42,059 nt of DNA from Escherichia phage HHU8: the sequence record PQ641135; one strand, written 5' to 3'. The position numbers and the translations under genes were made by a program. Each line of letters begins with the position of its first letter. The stretch's first letter is position 1. Positions 19,485 to 28,210 of this stretch are shown here, piece by piece. The notes beneath the pieces were generated by a model that was given only the letters and a program-made list of their open reading frames with translations, had not been told where the DNA came from and did no database searches.

Positions 19485-19661
19485 CTACGCAAGACAGGCG
19501 AACAGAACAGCAGGGATGACAGCCAAGAATACCCACAGGATAAAGCCTTCTGCCCCGGCAGTGTCAACGTGGCTCTTGTTGTACTGGTCGCACGCGGCCA
19601 GACAGACAACAGAGAACAGGGCAAACCATACCACAGCTACAATCCAAAGTAAAACACTCAT
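19485..19661 (-). CDS. small membrane protein with two predicted transmembrane helices
   Basis: 58 aa from the ATG at 19659-19661 (MSVLLWIVAVVWFALFSVV...FILWVFLAVIPAVLFACLA); two hydrophobic stretches separated by a short polar loop. Confidence 0.4.
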   Translation of the reverse strand: MSVLLWIVAVVWFALFSVVCLAACDQYNKSHVDTAGAEGFILWVFLAVIPAVLFACLA

Positions 19662-20236
19662 TTGCGTTTCCTTAATTCGAGTTCCAGAATGAACAGCGCA
19701 TTGCACGCGGCGTGCGCCAGATGGTGCAGGTTGGATTCGCTATCCAGTTCCTCACCCTTACCCACCGCCGTCAGGTGTCGCAGCAGTGCTGACTTGTAGC
19801 GTTCCTCACCTTCCGGTACGGTCTGCCACGAGTGGGCTGCATACTTCTCAGCGCCGAAGGTCAGCACGCTGGCCACAGCCTCCAGTGCATTAGGGCAGCC
19901 GTCGAGCAGCAGTGACATACGAGGCTTGCCGCCGTCGAACTTCATGCCACCCGGCCCAGCGCCCTTGGCCACAGCCACCTCAACATCATGGGCCGGGTCG
20001 TAAGGGTCAACCGGGATGAATGCAATATCGACTTCCTTCACCTCGTAAGGTTCCAGCACCAGCAGGTGTGTCTTGCCATCCTTGACACAGGTGTAATAAT
20101 CACGGCTATCGTTCGGCACATCGTACGGCTCGTCGTACGTCAGGATGACACCTTGCTCAGCAATGTCGCTCAGCAGCGTGCCAGTACCCCAGTTGCGTGC
20201 CGGGTCTAAGATAAACTTCTGACCTTTCTTACCCAT
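19658..20236 (-). CDS. protein with a dATP/dGTP pyrophosphohydrolase-like C-terminal domain
   Basis: 192 aa from the ATG at 20234-20236 (GGAGGT upstream). The C-terminal half (MKFDGGKPRMSLL...LTFGAEKY...W...RYKSALLRHL...ESNLHHLAHAACNALFILE) follows the pattern I recall for the phage dATP/dGTP diphosphohydrolase N-terminal domain family; recalled from memory, not searched. Confidence 0.45.
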   Translation of the reverse strand: MGKKGQKFILDPARNWGTGTLLSDIAEQGVILTYDEPYDVPNDSRDYYTCVKDGKTHLLVLEPYEVKEVDIAFIPVDPYDPAHDVEVAVAKGAGPGGMKFDGGKPRMSLLLDGCPNALEAVASVLTFGAEKYAAHSWQTVPEGEERYKSALLRHLTAVGKGEELDSESNLHHLAHAACNALFILELELRKRK

Positions 20237-20756
20237 TCGCCTTACCTCCATCGACCTTAGAATCAGCGCCATCGTATTTAGCATTGGCATGAACATACTC
20301 ATGATTGTCCTCGTACCGGGTCACTTCATAAACCGTGATGCCGAGGCCACGCATGAAGTCAACGATGTGTGGCAGGTCGTCGAAAGCACACACGATGTTC
20401 TCAATGCCAATGTCCTCCAGCGCCGCCAGCTTCATCTCTGTGTCTTTACGGCAGTCGCCAATCTCTCTCATGATTAGCTTGTCGTAAACCACACCAGCTT
20501 CGTCAAGCCATTGCTCTGTTACTTCACGGGCCACGGCCCCGCGTCCGGTCAGGATGATAATGCGATACGTGAGGGCCAAGGCGTTCACAATATCAATCGT
20601 GTCCTGAAACGCAGGGTCGTCAGCGCCAGCCAAGTTGAACTCGGCCCACGCTTCATCAAGGTGCCGACGCTCCGGTGGAGGCAGCAGGTGTAGACGCCAG
20701 CGGCCATCAGCCAGCGTGCCGTCCAAATCAACGACTACGGTATCTTTCATGTGCAT
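20229..20756 (-). CDS. HAD-superfamily phosphatase (polynucleotide 3'-phosphatase-like)
   Basis: HAD motif I DxDGT at the N-terminus (VVVDLDGTLADG) when started at the ATGs at 20748-20756; the longer track ORF extends upstream in frame. Downstream acidic motifs are consistent with a HAD fold. Confidence 0.55.
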   Translation of the reverse strand: MHMKDTVVVDLDGTLADGRWRLHLLPPPERRHLDEAWAEFNLAGADDPAFQDTIDIVNALALTYRIIILTGRGAVAREVTEQWLDEAGVVYDKLIMREIGDCRKDTEMKLAALEDIGIENIVCAFDDLPHIVDFMRGLGITVYEVTRYEDNHEYVHANAKYDGADSKVDGGKANG

Positions 20757-23537: not shown

Positions 23538-24437
23538 TTACAGACTCGGCAGGCCGAAGTCAGCATCGCCAGTCACGTCCGGCTCAGGCTTGGACGCTGC
23601 CGACTTGTCAGCCGCGCCAGCCGTTGCCAGCTCCTGCACTTCCTGCTTAACCTCGGCCACTTCCTCCGGCTGGCCCACGTCGCCCAGCTCCGGCAGCTCA
23701 GCGATTGCCGAGCCAGCACCAGCGCCGTTCAGCAGCAGGTCAAGCGGAGAGCCGGGGAACTCAGGAGATTCCAGCAGCTTGTCCTGAATCCAGTTCTTGG
23801 ATTTGCCATCGTCGTTCTTGCCTTCGATGTACAGGGATTCCCAGTCTTCCTTGGTAGGACGGTTCCACAGGAACAGCTTGAACAGCGTCTCGTCCTCAAC
23901 CTCCGGCACCGGGTACGGCTGGTCAGTCACCGGGTCAACCGCGAGCATGATGTTCTCAAGGTCGATGTTGGCGTACACCTTCTTGTTCTCACCCTCGCCC
24001 GATTCGTTGTGGATAATCGGAACGATGAAGGTGTGGTTCAGAAGCTGCGCGAAGTGCTTCGCAGTCTTGTCCGGGTTCATACGCTTGAACAGTTTGTAAG
24101 CGCCTGACTTGCTGTTCAGGTCTTTCTTCACAGCGATGAACTGCGTGCGCACCTTGCCCGGTACCATCTTACCATTGACAACTTCATGGTAAGTCTCGCC
24201 GTTCTTGGCCTTGCCCCACAGTGCGAACTGGAGGAAGAACTTATTGACAGGCGGTTTGTCCGGTGCCTGCTTGGTCACGCTCGGCCCCACTTCAATGTAG
24301 CCAACCAGCCGCGCCAGTGCCTTACCTTCCGGCAGCAGCTTACCACCACCAGACGTGGCTTCGTTAAAGTCAAGTTCTTCCTCGTCAACATACTGTTCGA
24401 CGATGGAGTTCATGCGGTTCAATACAGATGCGGTCAT
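23538..24437 (-). CDS. hypothetical protein with acidic C-terminal tail (possibly ssDNA-binding or replisome accessory)
   Basis: 299-aa ORF immediately downstream of the DNA polymerase (ATGA overlap at 24434-24437); acidic C-terminus (...EVAEVKQEVQELATAGAADK...DVTGDADFGLPSL). Function inferred only from position and the tail. Confidence 0.4.
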   Translation of the reverse strand: MTASVLNRMNSIVEQYVDEEELDFNEATSGGGKLLPEGKALARLVGYIEVGPSVTKQAPDKPPVNKFFLQFALWGKAKNGETYHEVVNGKMVPGKVRTQFIAVKKDLNSKSGAYKLFKRMNPDKTAKHFAQLLNHTFIVPIIHNESGEGENKKVYANIDLENIMLAVDPVTDQPYPVPEVEDETLFKLFLWNRPTKEDWESLYIEGKNDDGKSKNWIQDKLLESPEFPGSPLDLLLNGAGAGSAIAELPELGDVGQPEEVAEVKQEVQELATAGAADKSAASKPEPDVTGDADFGLPSL

Positions 24438-26896
24438 AATGCGATACCCTTACTCGTCAGGAATTGTCTCTTAAACTCCAGCACTTCATCGGCTGTCGTC
24501 TCTACGTGGTGCTTCTCGTACATGCTTGGCCCTGCTTCCACCTCTGCCGGGAACGGCACTGTCAGGTTATACTCTGGCCATACGTGGTTATAGTATTCCG
24601 GGATGCTCTCCATGATTGCCTTGAGTCCAACGAAGAACTCATGAGGGCAGTCAGGTGCAATGTCGAAATAGAATGCGTCATGCACTTGGTTGATGGGAAC
24701 CACACGCCCACCAAAGAAGTCGTTCGATAGCAGCCAGCGGAACAGCAGGCCACCGATTCCCTGTACCCAAAATGCGGTCTCACCCTGAATAGGGTAGTTA
24801 CGCATCTGAGTTGGTTTGTATTCCATCAGGTGAGCACGCGCCGCCTTGTTCCATTTCTCGTACTGACGGAATGAATAACAAGTTCCACCCGGCGACCGGA
24901 AGTGACCACGGCGATACACCTGCCATCTTCCGTTCTCGTCCTGCTCCTTGAACACATTGCTCTGTCCACTTTTCTCTACGGCTGGGAAGATAACCGAGTC
25001 GAACCATTCTTCAACTTCCGGGAACAGACCCTTCTCGTTGTCGATGAACGCTTGAGCTTCTTCCTCAGAGCAACCAGTCGAGTACGCAATGCCTCGCGCT
25101 GTTGCACCATACTGGTATGAGAACGCCTTCGGCTTAATGTCAGTACGCATCTGACTGTATCGTGCATGGTCAGGATGGGATTCATCCTTGCACTTCTTAA
25201 GCACGTCCTCGTATGGCTCGTTGAGCTGAGCTGACAGACGCATACAGTGCATGTCGATACCGTCGAGCAATGCACGAATCAGGTTCTTATCCTTGCTGAA
25301 CCCGGCCAGCCCCACCACTTCCAGTGCCGAGTAGTCAGCCTCAACGATGCGGCCACCTTCACCAAAGCGGGAGGTGAACATCTGCTTAACTTTACTCGTG
25401 CCTTTACGTGGCAAGTTCTGACTGTTAGGTCGCGCCGATGATAGGCGCGTCGTCTCCGTCGCGGTCATGTTGATGGTGTGGTGTACGATACTGTCCGGCT
25501 GGATGAACTGCATCATCCCCGACTGGCCAGTCACGTTCCCTTCTTCATCGAACGTCTCGCTCAGGTAGTAAGTGCCGAGGTCTTTCTGTGCCTTGGCTCG
25601 GTCGGCAATCTCCACCACGCCGGGAATCTTACGCGCTGCCAGAATGTCCAGCACCTCACCCGCCGTACTGAATACCGGACTGCCATCGGCAAGCCTGCGC
25701 TTACCAACCCAGTCACCCGTGCGCCGCAGGTATTCGCCCGGTCGCTTCGGGTCTTCCCATTCGAGGTTGTCTGCAATCTCCTTCGCTCGTTTGTCCTGCA
25801 CACGCAGGAGGCCCGGCATTCGGAACAGCACCTCACCCCACTTGGTATCCACCTCATCCGTTGCCAGCTTCTCGAACTTGGGCGCACCCTTGTACTTCCC
25901 GCTGGTGTAGATGGTCTGGTGTACCTTCTCAACCGGGTCATACCATAGCCCGGTCTCGGCATCCCACTCGCACTCGTTGGTATGCTTGACCCACTTGTCC
26001 TTGCCACGCTTGAACAGTGGTGCATCCACCTTGACGTAAATGAGATTGCCATCCCCATCCCGGCGCTCGACTCGCGCCTTGTACTTCATCACGCCGCCGA
26101 ACACGAACGCACTCATGTGGTAAGCTGACGTGAACTTGAACTGGTCACGCGCTTCCTGTGGCATGTCGGCTGGCAGGTAACTCAGCAGCGTATCAGTCAG
26201 CCCACTGATTGCATCCTGCAACTCACGGCGGTTGCGCTCGGCAACCTCGCGGTCAACGTGCAGACCAGCGTGCATCATGTACGCCCACATGAGCATACCT
26301 TCGAACCGGGTCAGTGCCATTGGCAACATGCCCTGCTTCGTCAGCTCAGACCACTGACCAACGAACAGCTTGGTCGTGTTCTCAATATCGCCGGACGGCC
26401 CGGACAGATATTCGCTCAGCAGCTCAGGGTCAATCTGGCTGGTCAGGTATCCCGACTCCCACATTGCCTTGACTGCATCCACCTTGTGAGTACCACCATA
26501 CTTCGGTGCTGTCTCGTTCAAGGATGGGTACTGGGATTGTTGGTGCGTCAGCAGATACTCAGCATACGCCGTACAGAATACACGGCCACCTCGTTTGAGG
26601 AAGGCGATGAACTCGTCACCGTAATGCTCGAACCACCAACTCAATTCATACGGCGCATTGTGGGCTACCAGAATGTTCGTGTCGGGATGCAGGTGCAGGC
26701 TCTTGTTCTGCAACCAATCCTCCCTCGAACTGTACCGATATTCCTCGCGCTCGTAGAACACCCAGCCATCCTTGGTCAGCACACAGTCACGCTGACCCTG
26801 CATCACCACATAGTTATCAGGGCAGCGGGGAGATGCTAGCTCCCCGTACCACTCGTGGTTCTCTGTTTCATAGTCAATGATACAGAACCTTGGCAT
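24434..26896 (-). CDS. DNA polymerase (family A, T7 gp5-like) with 3'-5' exonuclease domain
   Basis: 820-aa ORF; Exo I motif at the N-terminus (IIDYETE); a polymerase motif B-like K...YG (KPKAFSYQYGAT); C-terminal ...NQVHDAF. Confidence 0.9.
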   Translation of the reverse strand: MPRFCIIDYETENHEWYGELASPRCPDNYVVMQGQRDCVLTKDGWVFYEREEYRYSSREDWLQNKSLHLHPDTNILVAHNAPYELSWWFEHYGDEFIAFLKRGGRVFCTAYAEYLLTHQQSQYPSLNETAPKYGGTHKVDAVKAMWESGYLTSQIDPELLSEYLSGPSGDIENTTKLFVGQWSELTKQGMLPMALTRFEGMLMWAYMMHAGLHVDREVAERNRRELQDAISGLTDTLLSYLPADMPQEARDQFKFTSAYHMSAFVFGGVMKYKARVERRDGDGNLIYVKVDAPLFKRGKDKWVKHTNECEWDAETGLWYDPVEKVHQTIYTSGKYKGAPKFEKLATDEVDTKWGEVLFRMPGLLRVQDKRAKEIADNLEWEDPKRPGEYLRRTGDWVGKRRLADGSPVFSTAGEVLDILAARKIPGVVEIADRAKAQKDLGTYYLSETFDEEGNVTGQSGMMQFIQPDSIVHHTINMTATETTRLSSARPNSQNLPRKGTSKVKQMFTSRFGEGGRIVEADYSALEVVGLAGFSKDKNLIRALLDGIDMHCMRLSAQLNEPYEDVLKKCKDESHPDHARYSQMRTDIKPKAFSYQYGATARGIAYSTGCSEEEAQAFIDNEKGLFPEVEEWFDSVIFPAVEKSGQSNVFKEQDENGRWQVYRRGHFRSPGGTCYSFRQYEKWNKAARAHLMEYKPTQMRNYPIQGETAFWVQGIGGLLFRWLLSNDFFGGRVVPINQVHDAFYFDIAPDCPHEFFVGLKAIMESIPEYYNHVWPEYNLTVPFPAEVEAGPSMYEKHHVETTADEVLEFKRQFLTSKGIAL

Positions 26897-27567
26897 TAAG
26901 TGTTCTCCGACATGCGTTCTACGTAGTCCATAATGTGGCCATACAAGGCAGCATGCTTCTGCATCATATATGCCTTACGTCCATCACTAGCATCTGCACG
27001 CACAGTATGCAGAGTTAGTAAATCCTCGTAGTCTGTAACCTCGCGGAACTCCACAGGGAAATAGCTAGCTGCTTCTGGTGTGAAGCTTGGCTCGTATGGG
27101 TACGCCATGAAGTCGTTAGGGTCACGGCTGTACTGTCCGGAGTATCGCGGGATACTGGACGGGAAGTAGAACTGGTTCAGGTTGAAGTCGAACTCACCCA
27201 GCACCTGTGACCAGCAGCCACACTTGCTCACGATGATATCGACCGGGCCTAACTTGAACACACCATACAGACGGGAACCGAAGTCGCCGCCTTCGCTCGC
27301 ATCGTGGTAGCTTGGCATGAACTCATACGGCAGATTGTGCTGCTTGGCATAGTCCTCCAGTCTGGAGTCCAGCCAGTCCAGTCGGCCAACCACACGGCCT
27401 ATGTCGCTACCCCAACCGAAGACCACAATGTCATAGTCCTTCGGCTCAACACCCAGCGCGGTATCCCTTGCCCCTCCCCCGGCAACCACGAAGTTCAGTT
27501 CTTCGGATTGCAGCAGACGGCAGATATCTTCTGCCCACACGCGCTTGACTTCGGCATTACTTGTCAT
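26896..27567 (-). CDS. Pol-beta-superfamily nucleotidyltransferase (CCA-adding enzyme / poly(A) polymerase head-domain-like)
   Basis: 223-aa ORF; N-terminal motif FVVAGGGARDTALGVEPKDYDIVVFG is a close match to the class II CCA-adding / poly(A) polymerase head domain signature (GGxxRD...KDxDxxV). ATG at 27565-27567 with AAGGGG upstream. Confidence 0.55.
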   Translation of the reverse strand: MTSNAEVKRVWAEDICRLLQSEELNFVVAGGGARDTALGVEPKDYDIVVFGWGSDIGRVVGRLDWLDSRLEDYAKQHNLPYEFMPSYHDASEGGDFGSRLYGVFKLGPVDIIVSKCGCWSQVLGEFDFNLNQFYFPSSIPRYSGQYSRDPNDFMAYPYEPSFTPEAASYFPVEFREVTDYEDLLTLHTVRADASDGRKAYMMQKHAALYGHIMDYVERMSENT

Positions 27568-27748
27568 GCTTCTGTTTCCCCTTACGATAAGTGAAGTTCA
27601 CCACGGCCACCACATCAGCAGGCGGCACATTGAATCGCTCAGCCAGCGCCTCAGCACCACGGAACGCATCACCCTTCCGGTACTGCGCCCGGATGGTAGC
27701 CTGCTCACGTTGGTTTAAGGGTGCCGCTCGATACGTGCGTTCTTCCAT
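27557..27748 (-). CDS. small putative helix-turn-helix DNA-binding protein
   Basis: 63-aa ORF; ATG at 27746-27748 with GGAG upstream; the segment IRAQYRKGDAFRGAEALAERFNVPPADVVAVV resembles a sigma-70 region-4-like HTH. Confidence 0.4.
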   Translation of the reverse strand: MEERTYRAAPLNQREQATIRAQYRKGDAFRGAEALAERFNVPPADVVAVVNFTYRKGKQKHDK

Positions 27749-27868
27749 ACTGCTTTACTCCACACTTTTCACATTCATAAATCACCAGCACTTTGCCAGT
27801 GGCCTTGCCCTTTACCTGCTCAGTAAGCAGGCTGCTGCCGCAAGAGCAACGGTGATAGCTGCGCCCCT

Positions 27869-28210
27869 TCACCACTTACTCGGCGTGGAACCGGGAAGGT
27901 AGTTGGTCGTAGGCTTGCGCTCGACGTACTGATTGTATGCAGACATGGCATCACACGCTGCCTGATACAGTCGTTCAGCTTCTGCATAGCTCCAGTCCTC
28001 GACAGGTTGTACTGGCTCAGCTACCTCTGCGAGCTGCCAAGACTTGGGCCGCGCAGTCCATGAGCCGCCGACACCGGAACCTCGCGCACCATCATCACGG
28101 TCGATGCTGATGTAGCGGTCGCTCACATCCACGATGGTGCCAGTCGCACCGTAATGCACAGTGCCCTTATCTACGTTTACTACGCGGTCGCCTACTTTCA
28201 GTCTGCTCAT
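27869..28210 (-). CDS. hypothetical protein
   Basis: 113-aa ORF; ATG at 28208-28210 with GAGGA upstream. Confidence 0.45.
   Translation of the reverse strand: MSRLKVGDRVVNVDKGTVHYGATGTIVDVSDRYISIDRDDGARGSGVGGSWTARPKSWQLAEVAEPVQPVEDWSYAEAERLYQAACDAMSAYNQYVERKPTTNYLPGSTPSKW

Follow-up and report, generated by a model that had tools for sequence, protein, structure and literature searches.

What does a nucleotidyltransferase little larger than a catalytic head do among the replication genes of a lytic phage? The question is raised by a 42,059-nucleotide stretch of DNA (hereafter the window, meaning the whole stretch that was analyzed) from Escherichia phage HHU8 (sequence record PQ641135), a lytic Autographivirales podovirus of the genus Bonnellvirus. 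Here, a 223-aa open reading frame (ORF; its product is called NTase below) begins with an ATG on the minus strand, directly upstream of the DNA polymerase gene. [quoted passage not shown] It had further suggested that NTase repairs tRNA 3′ ends, possibly in partnership with a HAD phosphatase encoded elsewhere in the window. The coordinates, the length of 223 aa, the shortness, and the overlap are correct, and the strand, which had not been given, is minus. By the sequence and structure comparisons presented here, NTase is homologous to the head of class II enzymes without being a CCA-adding enzyme proper; it is a genuine small enzyme that is probably active. More tentatively, we infer its activity, acceptor, nucleotides, and role: NTase may be an active, metal-dependent, untemplated nucleotidyltransferase on exposed RNA 3′-OH ends, expressed together with the replisome.

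Taken as a single sequence, NTase reached 14.8 bits against the Pfam family PolyA_pol (PF01743), below the gathering score of 23. In single-sequence searches of Pfam, NCBIfam, and the PDB (phmmer), only about 25 residues of motif A aligned, with weak or non-significant E-values; in the PDB, this motif alone aligned to E. coli poly(A) polymerase. Since these searches, like hhalign against the E. coli CCA enzyme or PAP alone, covered motif A only, we built a class II reference alignment of nine sequences, comprising E. coli Cca, PcnB, and seven phage enzymes. This extended the match to 170 columns. Specifically, hhalign of the 224-sequence family alignment against the class II alignment gave a probability of 94.7% and an E-value of 6e-8, pairing NTase residues 24-209 with residues 1-188 of E. 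coli CCA. Furthermore, when the family profile was searched against PDB sequences, it matched class II CCA enzymes and PAPs only (E = 5.4e-7 to 4e-3). Chance does not account for matches of this strength.

The AlphaFold2 (AF2) model of NTase, calculated from a 75-sequence alignment (mean pLDDT 90.3, pTM 0.88), starts with an N-terminal helix, continues through a strand, the glycine turn, and a helix into the DxD strand, and is followed by a long helix and three more strands. Next, a short helix runs up to FDFNLNQF; beyond this segment come an insert that is coil for the most part and a long C-terminal helix (195-222). The highest fold comparison scores were obtained with E. coli PAP I (10.1), the Aquifex A-adding enzyme (9.7), and the Thermotoga maritima CCA enzyme (8.8), with the Geobacillus CCA enzyme (8.4), Aquifex 3wfo (8.3), and the human (7.5) and Arabidopsis (7.3) CCA enzymes behind them. 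Other Pol-beta families gave 7.3 (both small alarmone synthetase and TENT5), 6.6 (MenT1), and 5.4 to 6.8 (CD-NTases). In a Foldseek search of the PDB, hits 1 to 26 were all class II; MenT1 came at rank 27 and ANT(2″)-Ia at rank 35 (E of about 1e-2). The comparison against CCA enzymes, PAPs, MNT toxins, and cGAS/DncV-like enzymes proposed with the initial annotation was carried out, and its class II-like head was upheld by profile (E = 5.4e-7), by hhalign, and by the top fold matches, with class II best throughout. Membership of the MNT antitoxin, MenT, ANT, CD-NTase, or small alarmone synthetase subfamilies was rejected, as all of these score below class II.

The predicted catalytic residues bear out this relationship (Table 1). 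Motif A reads GGGARD-x8-DYD at residues 29-46, in agreement with the class II GGxVRD...DxD. Across the 224 sequences, G30, G31, R34, D44, and D46 are conserved to 100% and D35 to 99%. The initial annotation had recognized this motif rightly but had placed it at the very start of the protein, whereas it lies at residues 27-51, behind the N-terminal helix. By comparison with class II, G30, G31, R34, and D35 are the predicted nucleotide-binding glycine turn, and D44 and D46 are the predicted metal-binding carboxylates. A third carboxylate is contributed in class II by Asp99 of TmCCA and Glu74 of AaL (PMC3925840). Its putative counterpart, D110 (98%), lies on a hairpin (100-106/109-114) that matches the class II FPVFL...EYALAR in a region where hhalign was misregistered; the correspondence of D110 to the E of ExAxxR is inferred from topology.

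Motif B is degenerate but still recognizable. F126 (96%), D127 (100%), N129 (97%), N131 (97%), and Q132 (92%) are conserved, and D127, N129, N131, and Q132 stand opposite the class II D-F-T-x-N-A, as G144 (95%) stands opposite the Gly of the class II DPxxG turn. At the C terminus, R197 is found in all 224 sequences, L186 in 88%, and K204 in 79%; S194, R197, and K204 face the class II LSxERIxxExxK in a low-confidence alignment to residues 165-188 of E. coli CCA. The class II neck segment may survive, as a remnant, in this C-terminal signature. The near-absolute conservation of the active site in 224 divergent members argues for a working enzyme under selection.

NTase shares with class II CCA enzymes and PAPs (PDB 3aql, 4wby, 3h37, and 1miv) the five-stranded head fold, motif A, a conserved acidic residue on the adjacent strand of the hairpin, the Asp and x-N of motif B (D127 and N131), and the Gly of DPxxG (G144). 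However, these enzymes are about 400 to 470 aa long, and NTase, at 223 aa, has no body, tail, or HD domains, so that the tRNA-binding part is missing altogether. The elements specific to CCA addition are missing as well. RRD, which takes part in ribose recognition (PMC2910056), is aligned as E125-F126-D127, in which residue 125 varies, Phe occupies position 126 in 215 of the 224 sequences, and the Asp alone is kept. The BxA motif, which positions the tRNA end, and the flexible loop, which is required for A addition (PMC2910056), together make up some 20 residues in class II (about 22, residues 66-87, in E. coli CCA). In NTase, four residues, KCGC (K115-C118), connect strand 109-114 to the motif B helix, and positions 115 and 117 are unconserved. 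In class II enzymes, the base is read by an Asp and an Arg of the neck, and the acceptor/T-arm of the tRNA is held by the body and tail (PMC3925840). EDxxR (motif D) is the amino-acid template for CTP/ATP, and its Asp and Arg were irreplaceable in selection experiments (PMC11784652). No EDxxR was found in NTase, where hhalign sets the class II EDPLR with zero confidence against a non-conserved insert (about 150-169). All nine class II comparators, the 243- to 246-aa phage versions included, keep ED[PGA]xR.

Small size alone does not explain these losses, as two short phage class II enzymes show. Like NTase, gp272 of Microbacterium phage A3Wally (246 aa; L061:992-1732) and gp211 of Synechococcus phage B3 (243 aa; L063:983-1714) are phage-encoded and consist of roughly a head and a neck. 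In addition to motif A, these enzymes, which were found by tblastn with E. coli CCA in genomes of about 195 and 245 kb, retain what NTase has lost, namely RRD, the loop region, and ED-x-LR (EDPLR). Genuine class II CCA enzymes were present in 423 phage records, and the 30 that were sampled came mostly from large genomes (about 84 to 386 kb). The A3Wally CCA gene adjoins a gene for a SpoT-like HD protein, which brings to mind E. coli Cca, where an HD domain is fused to the enzyme. A bacterial protein, the 191-aa stand-alone 'CCA-adding enzyme head domain' of Streptococcus pneumoniae (NP_344798.1, PDB 2la3), is 11% identical to NTase and has a fold score of 7.0, below full-length class II.

A minimal reaction can be proposed from the elements that remain. 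The glycine turn G30-G31-x2-R34-D35 would hold a nucleotide triphosphate, D44, D46, and D110 would hold two Mg2+ ions, and a nucleoside monophosphate (NMP) would be moved to the 3′-OH of an acceptor. Every characterized member of the class II clade transfers NMP to RNA 3′-OH ends (PMC3925840). Because NTase appears to descend from this class, its acceptor would most likely be an exposed single-stranded RNA 3′ end, either a tRNA acceptor end or that of another RNA. Having neither a protein CCA template nor tRNA-measuring domains, it would extend the acceptor by one or a few unprogrammed nucleotides instead of building CCA. Its synthesis would coincide with that of the replisome, when infection is in its middle phase, that of DNA metabolism, and such co-expression is supported by the TAATG coupling and by the promoter position in phage Phi-S1 described below.

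Several observations weigh against this assignment. No RNA-binding platform is evident in NTase, and the family is uniformly acidic (median isoelectric point [pI] 4.8, median net charge -10, no member above pI 8). The head and neck of E. coli Cca are likewise acidic (pI 5.3), and the RNA affinity of that enzyme comes from domains that the NTase family does not have. The base-templating EDxxR is without a counterpart, and with the RR of motif B replaced by x-Phe, the use of nucleoside triphosphates over deoxynucleoside triphosphates (dNTPs) is not assured. The assignments of D110 as third carboxylate and of R197 as neck element rest on topology and a low-confidence alignment. Furthermore, the linkage of the gene favors DNA replication genes over RNA genes, and the literature found on the family consists of annotation and one comparative discussion (PMC7693777), with no experiment on any member.

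The family itself is widespread among phages. NTase matches PHROG 1614 'nucleotidyltransferase' over its full length (residues 2-219, E = 1.9e-39), a family of stand-alone proteins of 140 to 290 aa with which it agrees in size, motifs, and genome region, and from which the copy in the window differs in being a mosaic. Its identity is 60 to 83% to Bonnellvirus homologues and 38% to LIMEzero. A homologue search of two rounds gave 86 relatives, all of 160 to 254 aa, on contigs that, where informative, measured about 40 to 47 kb, like podovirus genomes. When the profile was run exhaustively against 1.84 billion cluster representatives (50% identity), 3816 proteins passed E <= 1e-3, of which 562 also passed E <= 1e-10. 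The top 150 matches, all 138 to 292 aa long, covered nearly the whole profile, and the longest family members, examined for domain fusions, revealed nothing informative. By tblastn, the family was located in 188 phage records, podoviruses of roughly 40 kb, including 110 from Pseudomonas, 24 from Vibrio, 16 from Escherichia, and 12 from Klebsiella. A pattern scan of one genome per species in 185,579 bacterial and archaeal species yielded three loci with a single stringent peptide pattern, which divergent cellular relatives could escape. All three lie on Pseudomonas contigs that resemble T7-type phage DNA and so offer no cellular context. Judged by these searches, the PHROG 1614 family appears to be essentially phage-restricted.

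RefSeq already carries 'nucleotidyltransferase' on phages J8-65, Lidtsur, LIMEzero, Phi-S1, and LKD16, several submitters use this name as well, and UniProt/BFVD entries read 'Nucleotidyltransferase', 'tRNA nucleotidyltransferase', 'Poly A polymerase head domain-containing protein', or 'tRNA maturase'. PolyA_pol was matched by 64 of 75 family members in Pfam scans (best E = 3e-5); PF26128, a precomputed domain label on many homologues, never came up in these scans. Evseev et al. (2020) reported that 37 of 46 Pectobacterium Autographiviridae, as against about 60 of more than 500 others, carry putative CCA-nucleotidyltransferases, modelled one enzyme, rooted their tree on LIMEzero, and stated that the role is unknown (PMC7693777). 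As the family has thus been annotated and discussed before, it is no new discovery, and the initial annotation re-describes a known, annotated, uncharacterized phage family. With the CCA-specific machinery missing, the tRNA and CCA labels in the databases claim more than the evidence shows. What is new here is the motif-by-motif case for a minimal class II offshoot devoid of CCA-specific elements, the failure of the HAD link, the recurring adjacency to replisome genes, and the mosaic C-terminal third of the window copy.

Gene placement was counted in 46 IMG/VR loci (L003-L048) with a called NTase ORF. NTase lies directly upstream of the T7-type primase/helicase gene in 23 of these and directly upstream of the DNA polymerase gene in 14; in most of these 37 loci the two genes overlap or have at most about 25 nt between them, but two gaps are wider (49 and 452 nt). 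Elsewhere, it is found about 0.9 kb upstream of the primase gene (four loci), between the genes for a 5′-3′ exonuclease and endonuclease VII (three loci), or in other positions (two loci). The positions that NTase takes in Autographivirales genomes number at least four. Drulisvirus has it immediately downstream of the polymerase gene, and in phage Phi-S1, it is the first gene behind a phage promoter, ahead of the primase/helicase gene. No partner gene is conserved across lineages in the 46 loci. This recurrent, tight linkage to replisome genes in differing arrangements is suggestive, not decisive; adjacency is weak evidence because the whole middle region of these small genomes encodes DNA metabolism.

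In the window, a Shine-Dalgarno-like AAGGGG (27578-27583) lies 10 nt 5′ of the NTase start, and the NTase TAA (26896-26898) and the polymerase ATG (26894-26896) have one base in common. The two genes overlap or are 0 to 49 nt apart in six of the seven Bonnellvirus/LIMEzero-type loci. The 63-aa PHROG 31596 ORF stands directly 5′ of NTase in all seven and is absent from T7-type loci. Owing to these overlaps (TAATG and 11 nt), the helicase gene, two small ORFs, NTase, and the polymerase gene form one tight minus-strand block. A 56-aa ORF at 27705-27875 on the minus strand encodes a zinc-ribbon-like CxC...CxxC protein; it overlaps both neighboring small ORFs, is unannotated in relatives, and sits in a stretch of about 118 nt (27749-27865) that is absent from phage LF82-23.

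The region is 98.8% identical to Enterobacter phage BHUENT7 as well as to Escherichia phages Ec1-ASingh and megetsur. Within one patch, however, identity to BHUENT7 falls to 28-67%, as opposed to 97-100% on either side. The C-terminal 64 aa of NTase are identical to those of the metagenomic homologue P0003, and the N-terminal part matches another homologue, P0001. Judged by these identities, the window's NTase copy is a mosaic whose C-terminal third stems from a lineage other than that of its closest relatives.

Table 1. Features of the NTase locus in the window, with positions on the whole stretch
Feature	Position	Strand	Basis
223-aa stand-alone nucleotidyltransferase ORF (PHROG 1614 family)	26896..27567	-	PHROG match, AF2 model, class II CCA/PAP top fold matches
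Motif A, VVAGGGARDTALGVEPKDYDIVVFG, residues 27-51	27415..27489	-	Alignment to GGxVRD...DxD of E. coli PAP and CCA
D110, putative third catalytic carboxylate, strand 109-114	27238..27240	-	Asp in 219/224
Degenerate motif B, FDFNLNQF, residues 126-133, corresponding to class II RRDFTxNA minus both Arg	27169..27192	-	hhalign pairs EFDFNLNQ with RRDLTINA
C-terminal signature L186-x3-R190-x-D192-x-S194-x2-R197-x6-K204, start of helix 195-222	26956..27012	-	Conservation, AF2 model
Family A DNA polymerase gene, 820 aa, directly downstream (operon context)	24434..26896	-	ORF; relatives carry 'DNA polymerase' annotation
TAATG stop/start overlap, NTase/DNA polymerase	26894..26898	-	Sequence
63-aa basic ORF, PHROG 31596 (function unassigned), E = 1e-37; 3′ end overlaps NTase start by 11 nt	27557..27748	-	
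Recombination patch, last ~75 NTase codons and first ~20 polymerase codons	26830..27130	.	Identity to BHUENT7

Could NTase, then, be a counter-defense enzyme that repairs tRNA CCA ends, restoring C, C, or A on host-trimmed tails and so keeping translation going? We consider this unlikely. A conceivable target exists in Cas12a3, a CRISPR effector that cuts tRNA 3′ CCA tails (PMC12851939), and the gene is accessory, with the patchy, host-biased spread seen in the counts of the survey cited above (PMC7693777). It also coincides with a local recombination hot spot, as is often the case for counter-defense genes, is homologous to CCA-adding enzymes, and bears the label 'tRNA nucleotidyltransferase' in some family records. 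Against this stands the loss of BxA, the flexible loop, RRD, EDxxR, and the body and tail domains, while genuine phage CCA enzymes retain the CCA motifs even at 243 to 246 aa. Moreover, no tRNA genes were found in the window, and the hosts of these phages encode a Cca enzyme of their own. The acidity of the family also counts against the tRNA-repair proposal of the initial annotation, which drew no support from anything tested here.

The HAD phosphatase brought forward as a partner in such repair does not change this assessment. Its domain identity was confirmed: the ORF at 20229-20756 encodes a HAD phosphatase domain of the PNKP type (Pfam HAD_PNKP, E = 1.2e-14), has no kinase domain, and matches PHROG 415 'polynucleotide kinase' (E = 9e-55). 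Its link to NTase, however, fell away. The two genes are 6.1 kb apart in the window, and they lie within 10 kb of each other in 9 of the 46 loci, which belong to the Bonnellvirus/LIMEzero group apart from two others. HAD homologues occurred in 1251 phage records, mainly of phages of Klebsiella and Escherichia, many of which measure about 50 kb, and of Streptomyces, a host and taxon spectrum different from that of the NTase records, which are mostly Pseudomonas and Vibrio podoviruses. A T4-type RNA end-healing pair of NTase and a PNKP-type 3′-phosphatase was rejected, as there is no conserved co-occurrence or linkage; an obligate repair pair was likewise rejected because the two genes are inherited independently. 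NTase is thus left without a conserved end-healing partner.

Beside the HAD gene, a 214-aa ORF on the minus strand (19658-20302) overlaps the start of the HAD_PNKP ORF. Its C-terminal half corresponds to a dATP/dGTP diphosphohydrolase N-terminal domain, MazZ-like (PF18909, E = 5e-33), and this nucleotide-pool gene pair adjoins the RNA polymerase gene.

Transfer of NMP to an acceptor other than a nucleic acid, either a host protein, as with MNT, or a small molecule, as with ANT(2″)-Ia, for instance to disarm a defense effector, appears rather improbable. MNT antitoxins AMPylate HEPN toxins, and the layout of NTase and its family (a Pol-beta head with a short helical tail, 140 to 290 aa, acidic) is closer to ANT and MNT proteins than to RNA polymerizing enzymes. 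Weak Pfam matches to Aminoglyc_resit, DUF6932, and DUF2204 were obtained for 11, 22, and 7 of the 75 members, respectively, with P0139 reaching E = 3e-4 against Aminoglyc_resit, and ANT(2″)-Ia was among the Foldseek matches at the E-value given above. Such enzymes nevertheless score well under class II, and the GGxxRD-x8-DxD spacing and the D-x-N-x-N element of NTase are class II hallmarks. PADLOC defense-system models gave no match among four family members, and, as stated, no partner gene is conserved across lineages. The MenT/AbiEii toxins (PDB 8an4) belong to a different subfamily (DUF1814/AbiEii) with scores below class II; a weak AbiEii match was seen in 1 of the 75 members, and NTase, unlike those systems, has no antitoxin partner beside it.

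The placement of the gene raises the alternative of a replisome-linked (deoxy)nucleotidyl transferase, which would add untemplated nucleotides, possibly deoxynucleoside monophosphates (dNMPs), to DNA or primer 3′ ends during replication or end processing. We regard it as quite improbable. In its favor are the 37 loci in which NTase immediately precedes the primase/helicase (23) or polymerase (14) gene, in lineage-dependent arrangements, and the position directly behind the polymerase gene in Drulisvirus. Both ribose-recognizing Arg residues of RRD (PMC2910056) are also lost, the second having become Phe in 215 of the 224 sequences. An aromatic residue at 126 could exclude the 2′-OH. Exclusion of this kind is performed in DNA polymerases by steric-gate residues. 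However, we know of no class II relative that naturally uses DNA primers or dNTPs, so this activity would be without precedent in the lineage. NTase is acidic and has no DNA-binding domain, adjacency counts for little in a middle region made up of DNA-metabolism genes, and 7 of the 46 loci were counted as having NTase away from a replisome gene. A bolder version, in which the whole family is a phage-specific replisome terminal (deoxy)nucleotidyl transferase with the motif B Phe as steric gate, adding dNMPs or choosing no particular sugar at DNA or primer 3′ ends, is a long shot. If true, a DNA-directed transferase would explain the operon linkage to primase/helicase or polymerase in several independent arrangements, and the family would bring action on DNA into the CCA/PAP lineage for the first time and give T7-type replication a new accessory factor.

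Finally, a catalytically dead structural or regulatory protein that retains the fold only can practically be dismissed: several class II motifs are lost, yet three carboxylates and the glycine turn conserved to 98-100% in 224 divergent sequences are hard to explain without catalysis.

Of these readings, the untemplated transferase on RNA 3′ ends is the one that we tentatively favor. The family is large and nearly confined to T7-like, phiKMV-like, and related podoviruses; its carriers include many phages under consideration as therapy against Pseudomonas, Klebsiella, Acinetobacter, and Pectobacterium. NTase would be easy to assay and is a cheap, well-defined target for biochemistry. Action on tRNA tails would make it a compact counter to the newly found immunity that cleaves such tails, Cas12a3 for example, and action on DNA or primers would make it a new accessory of replication.

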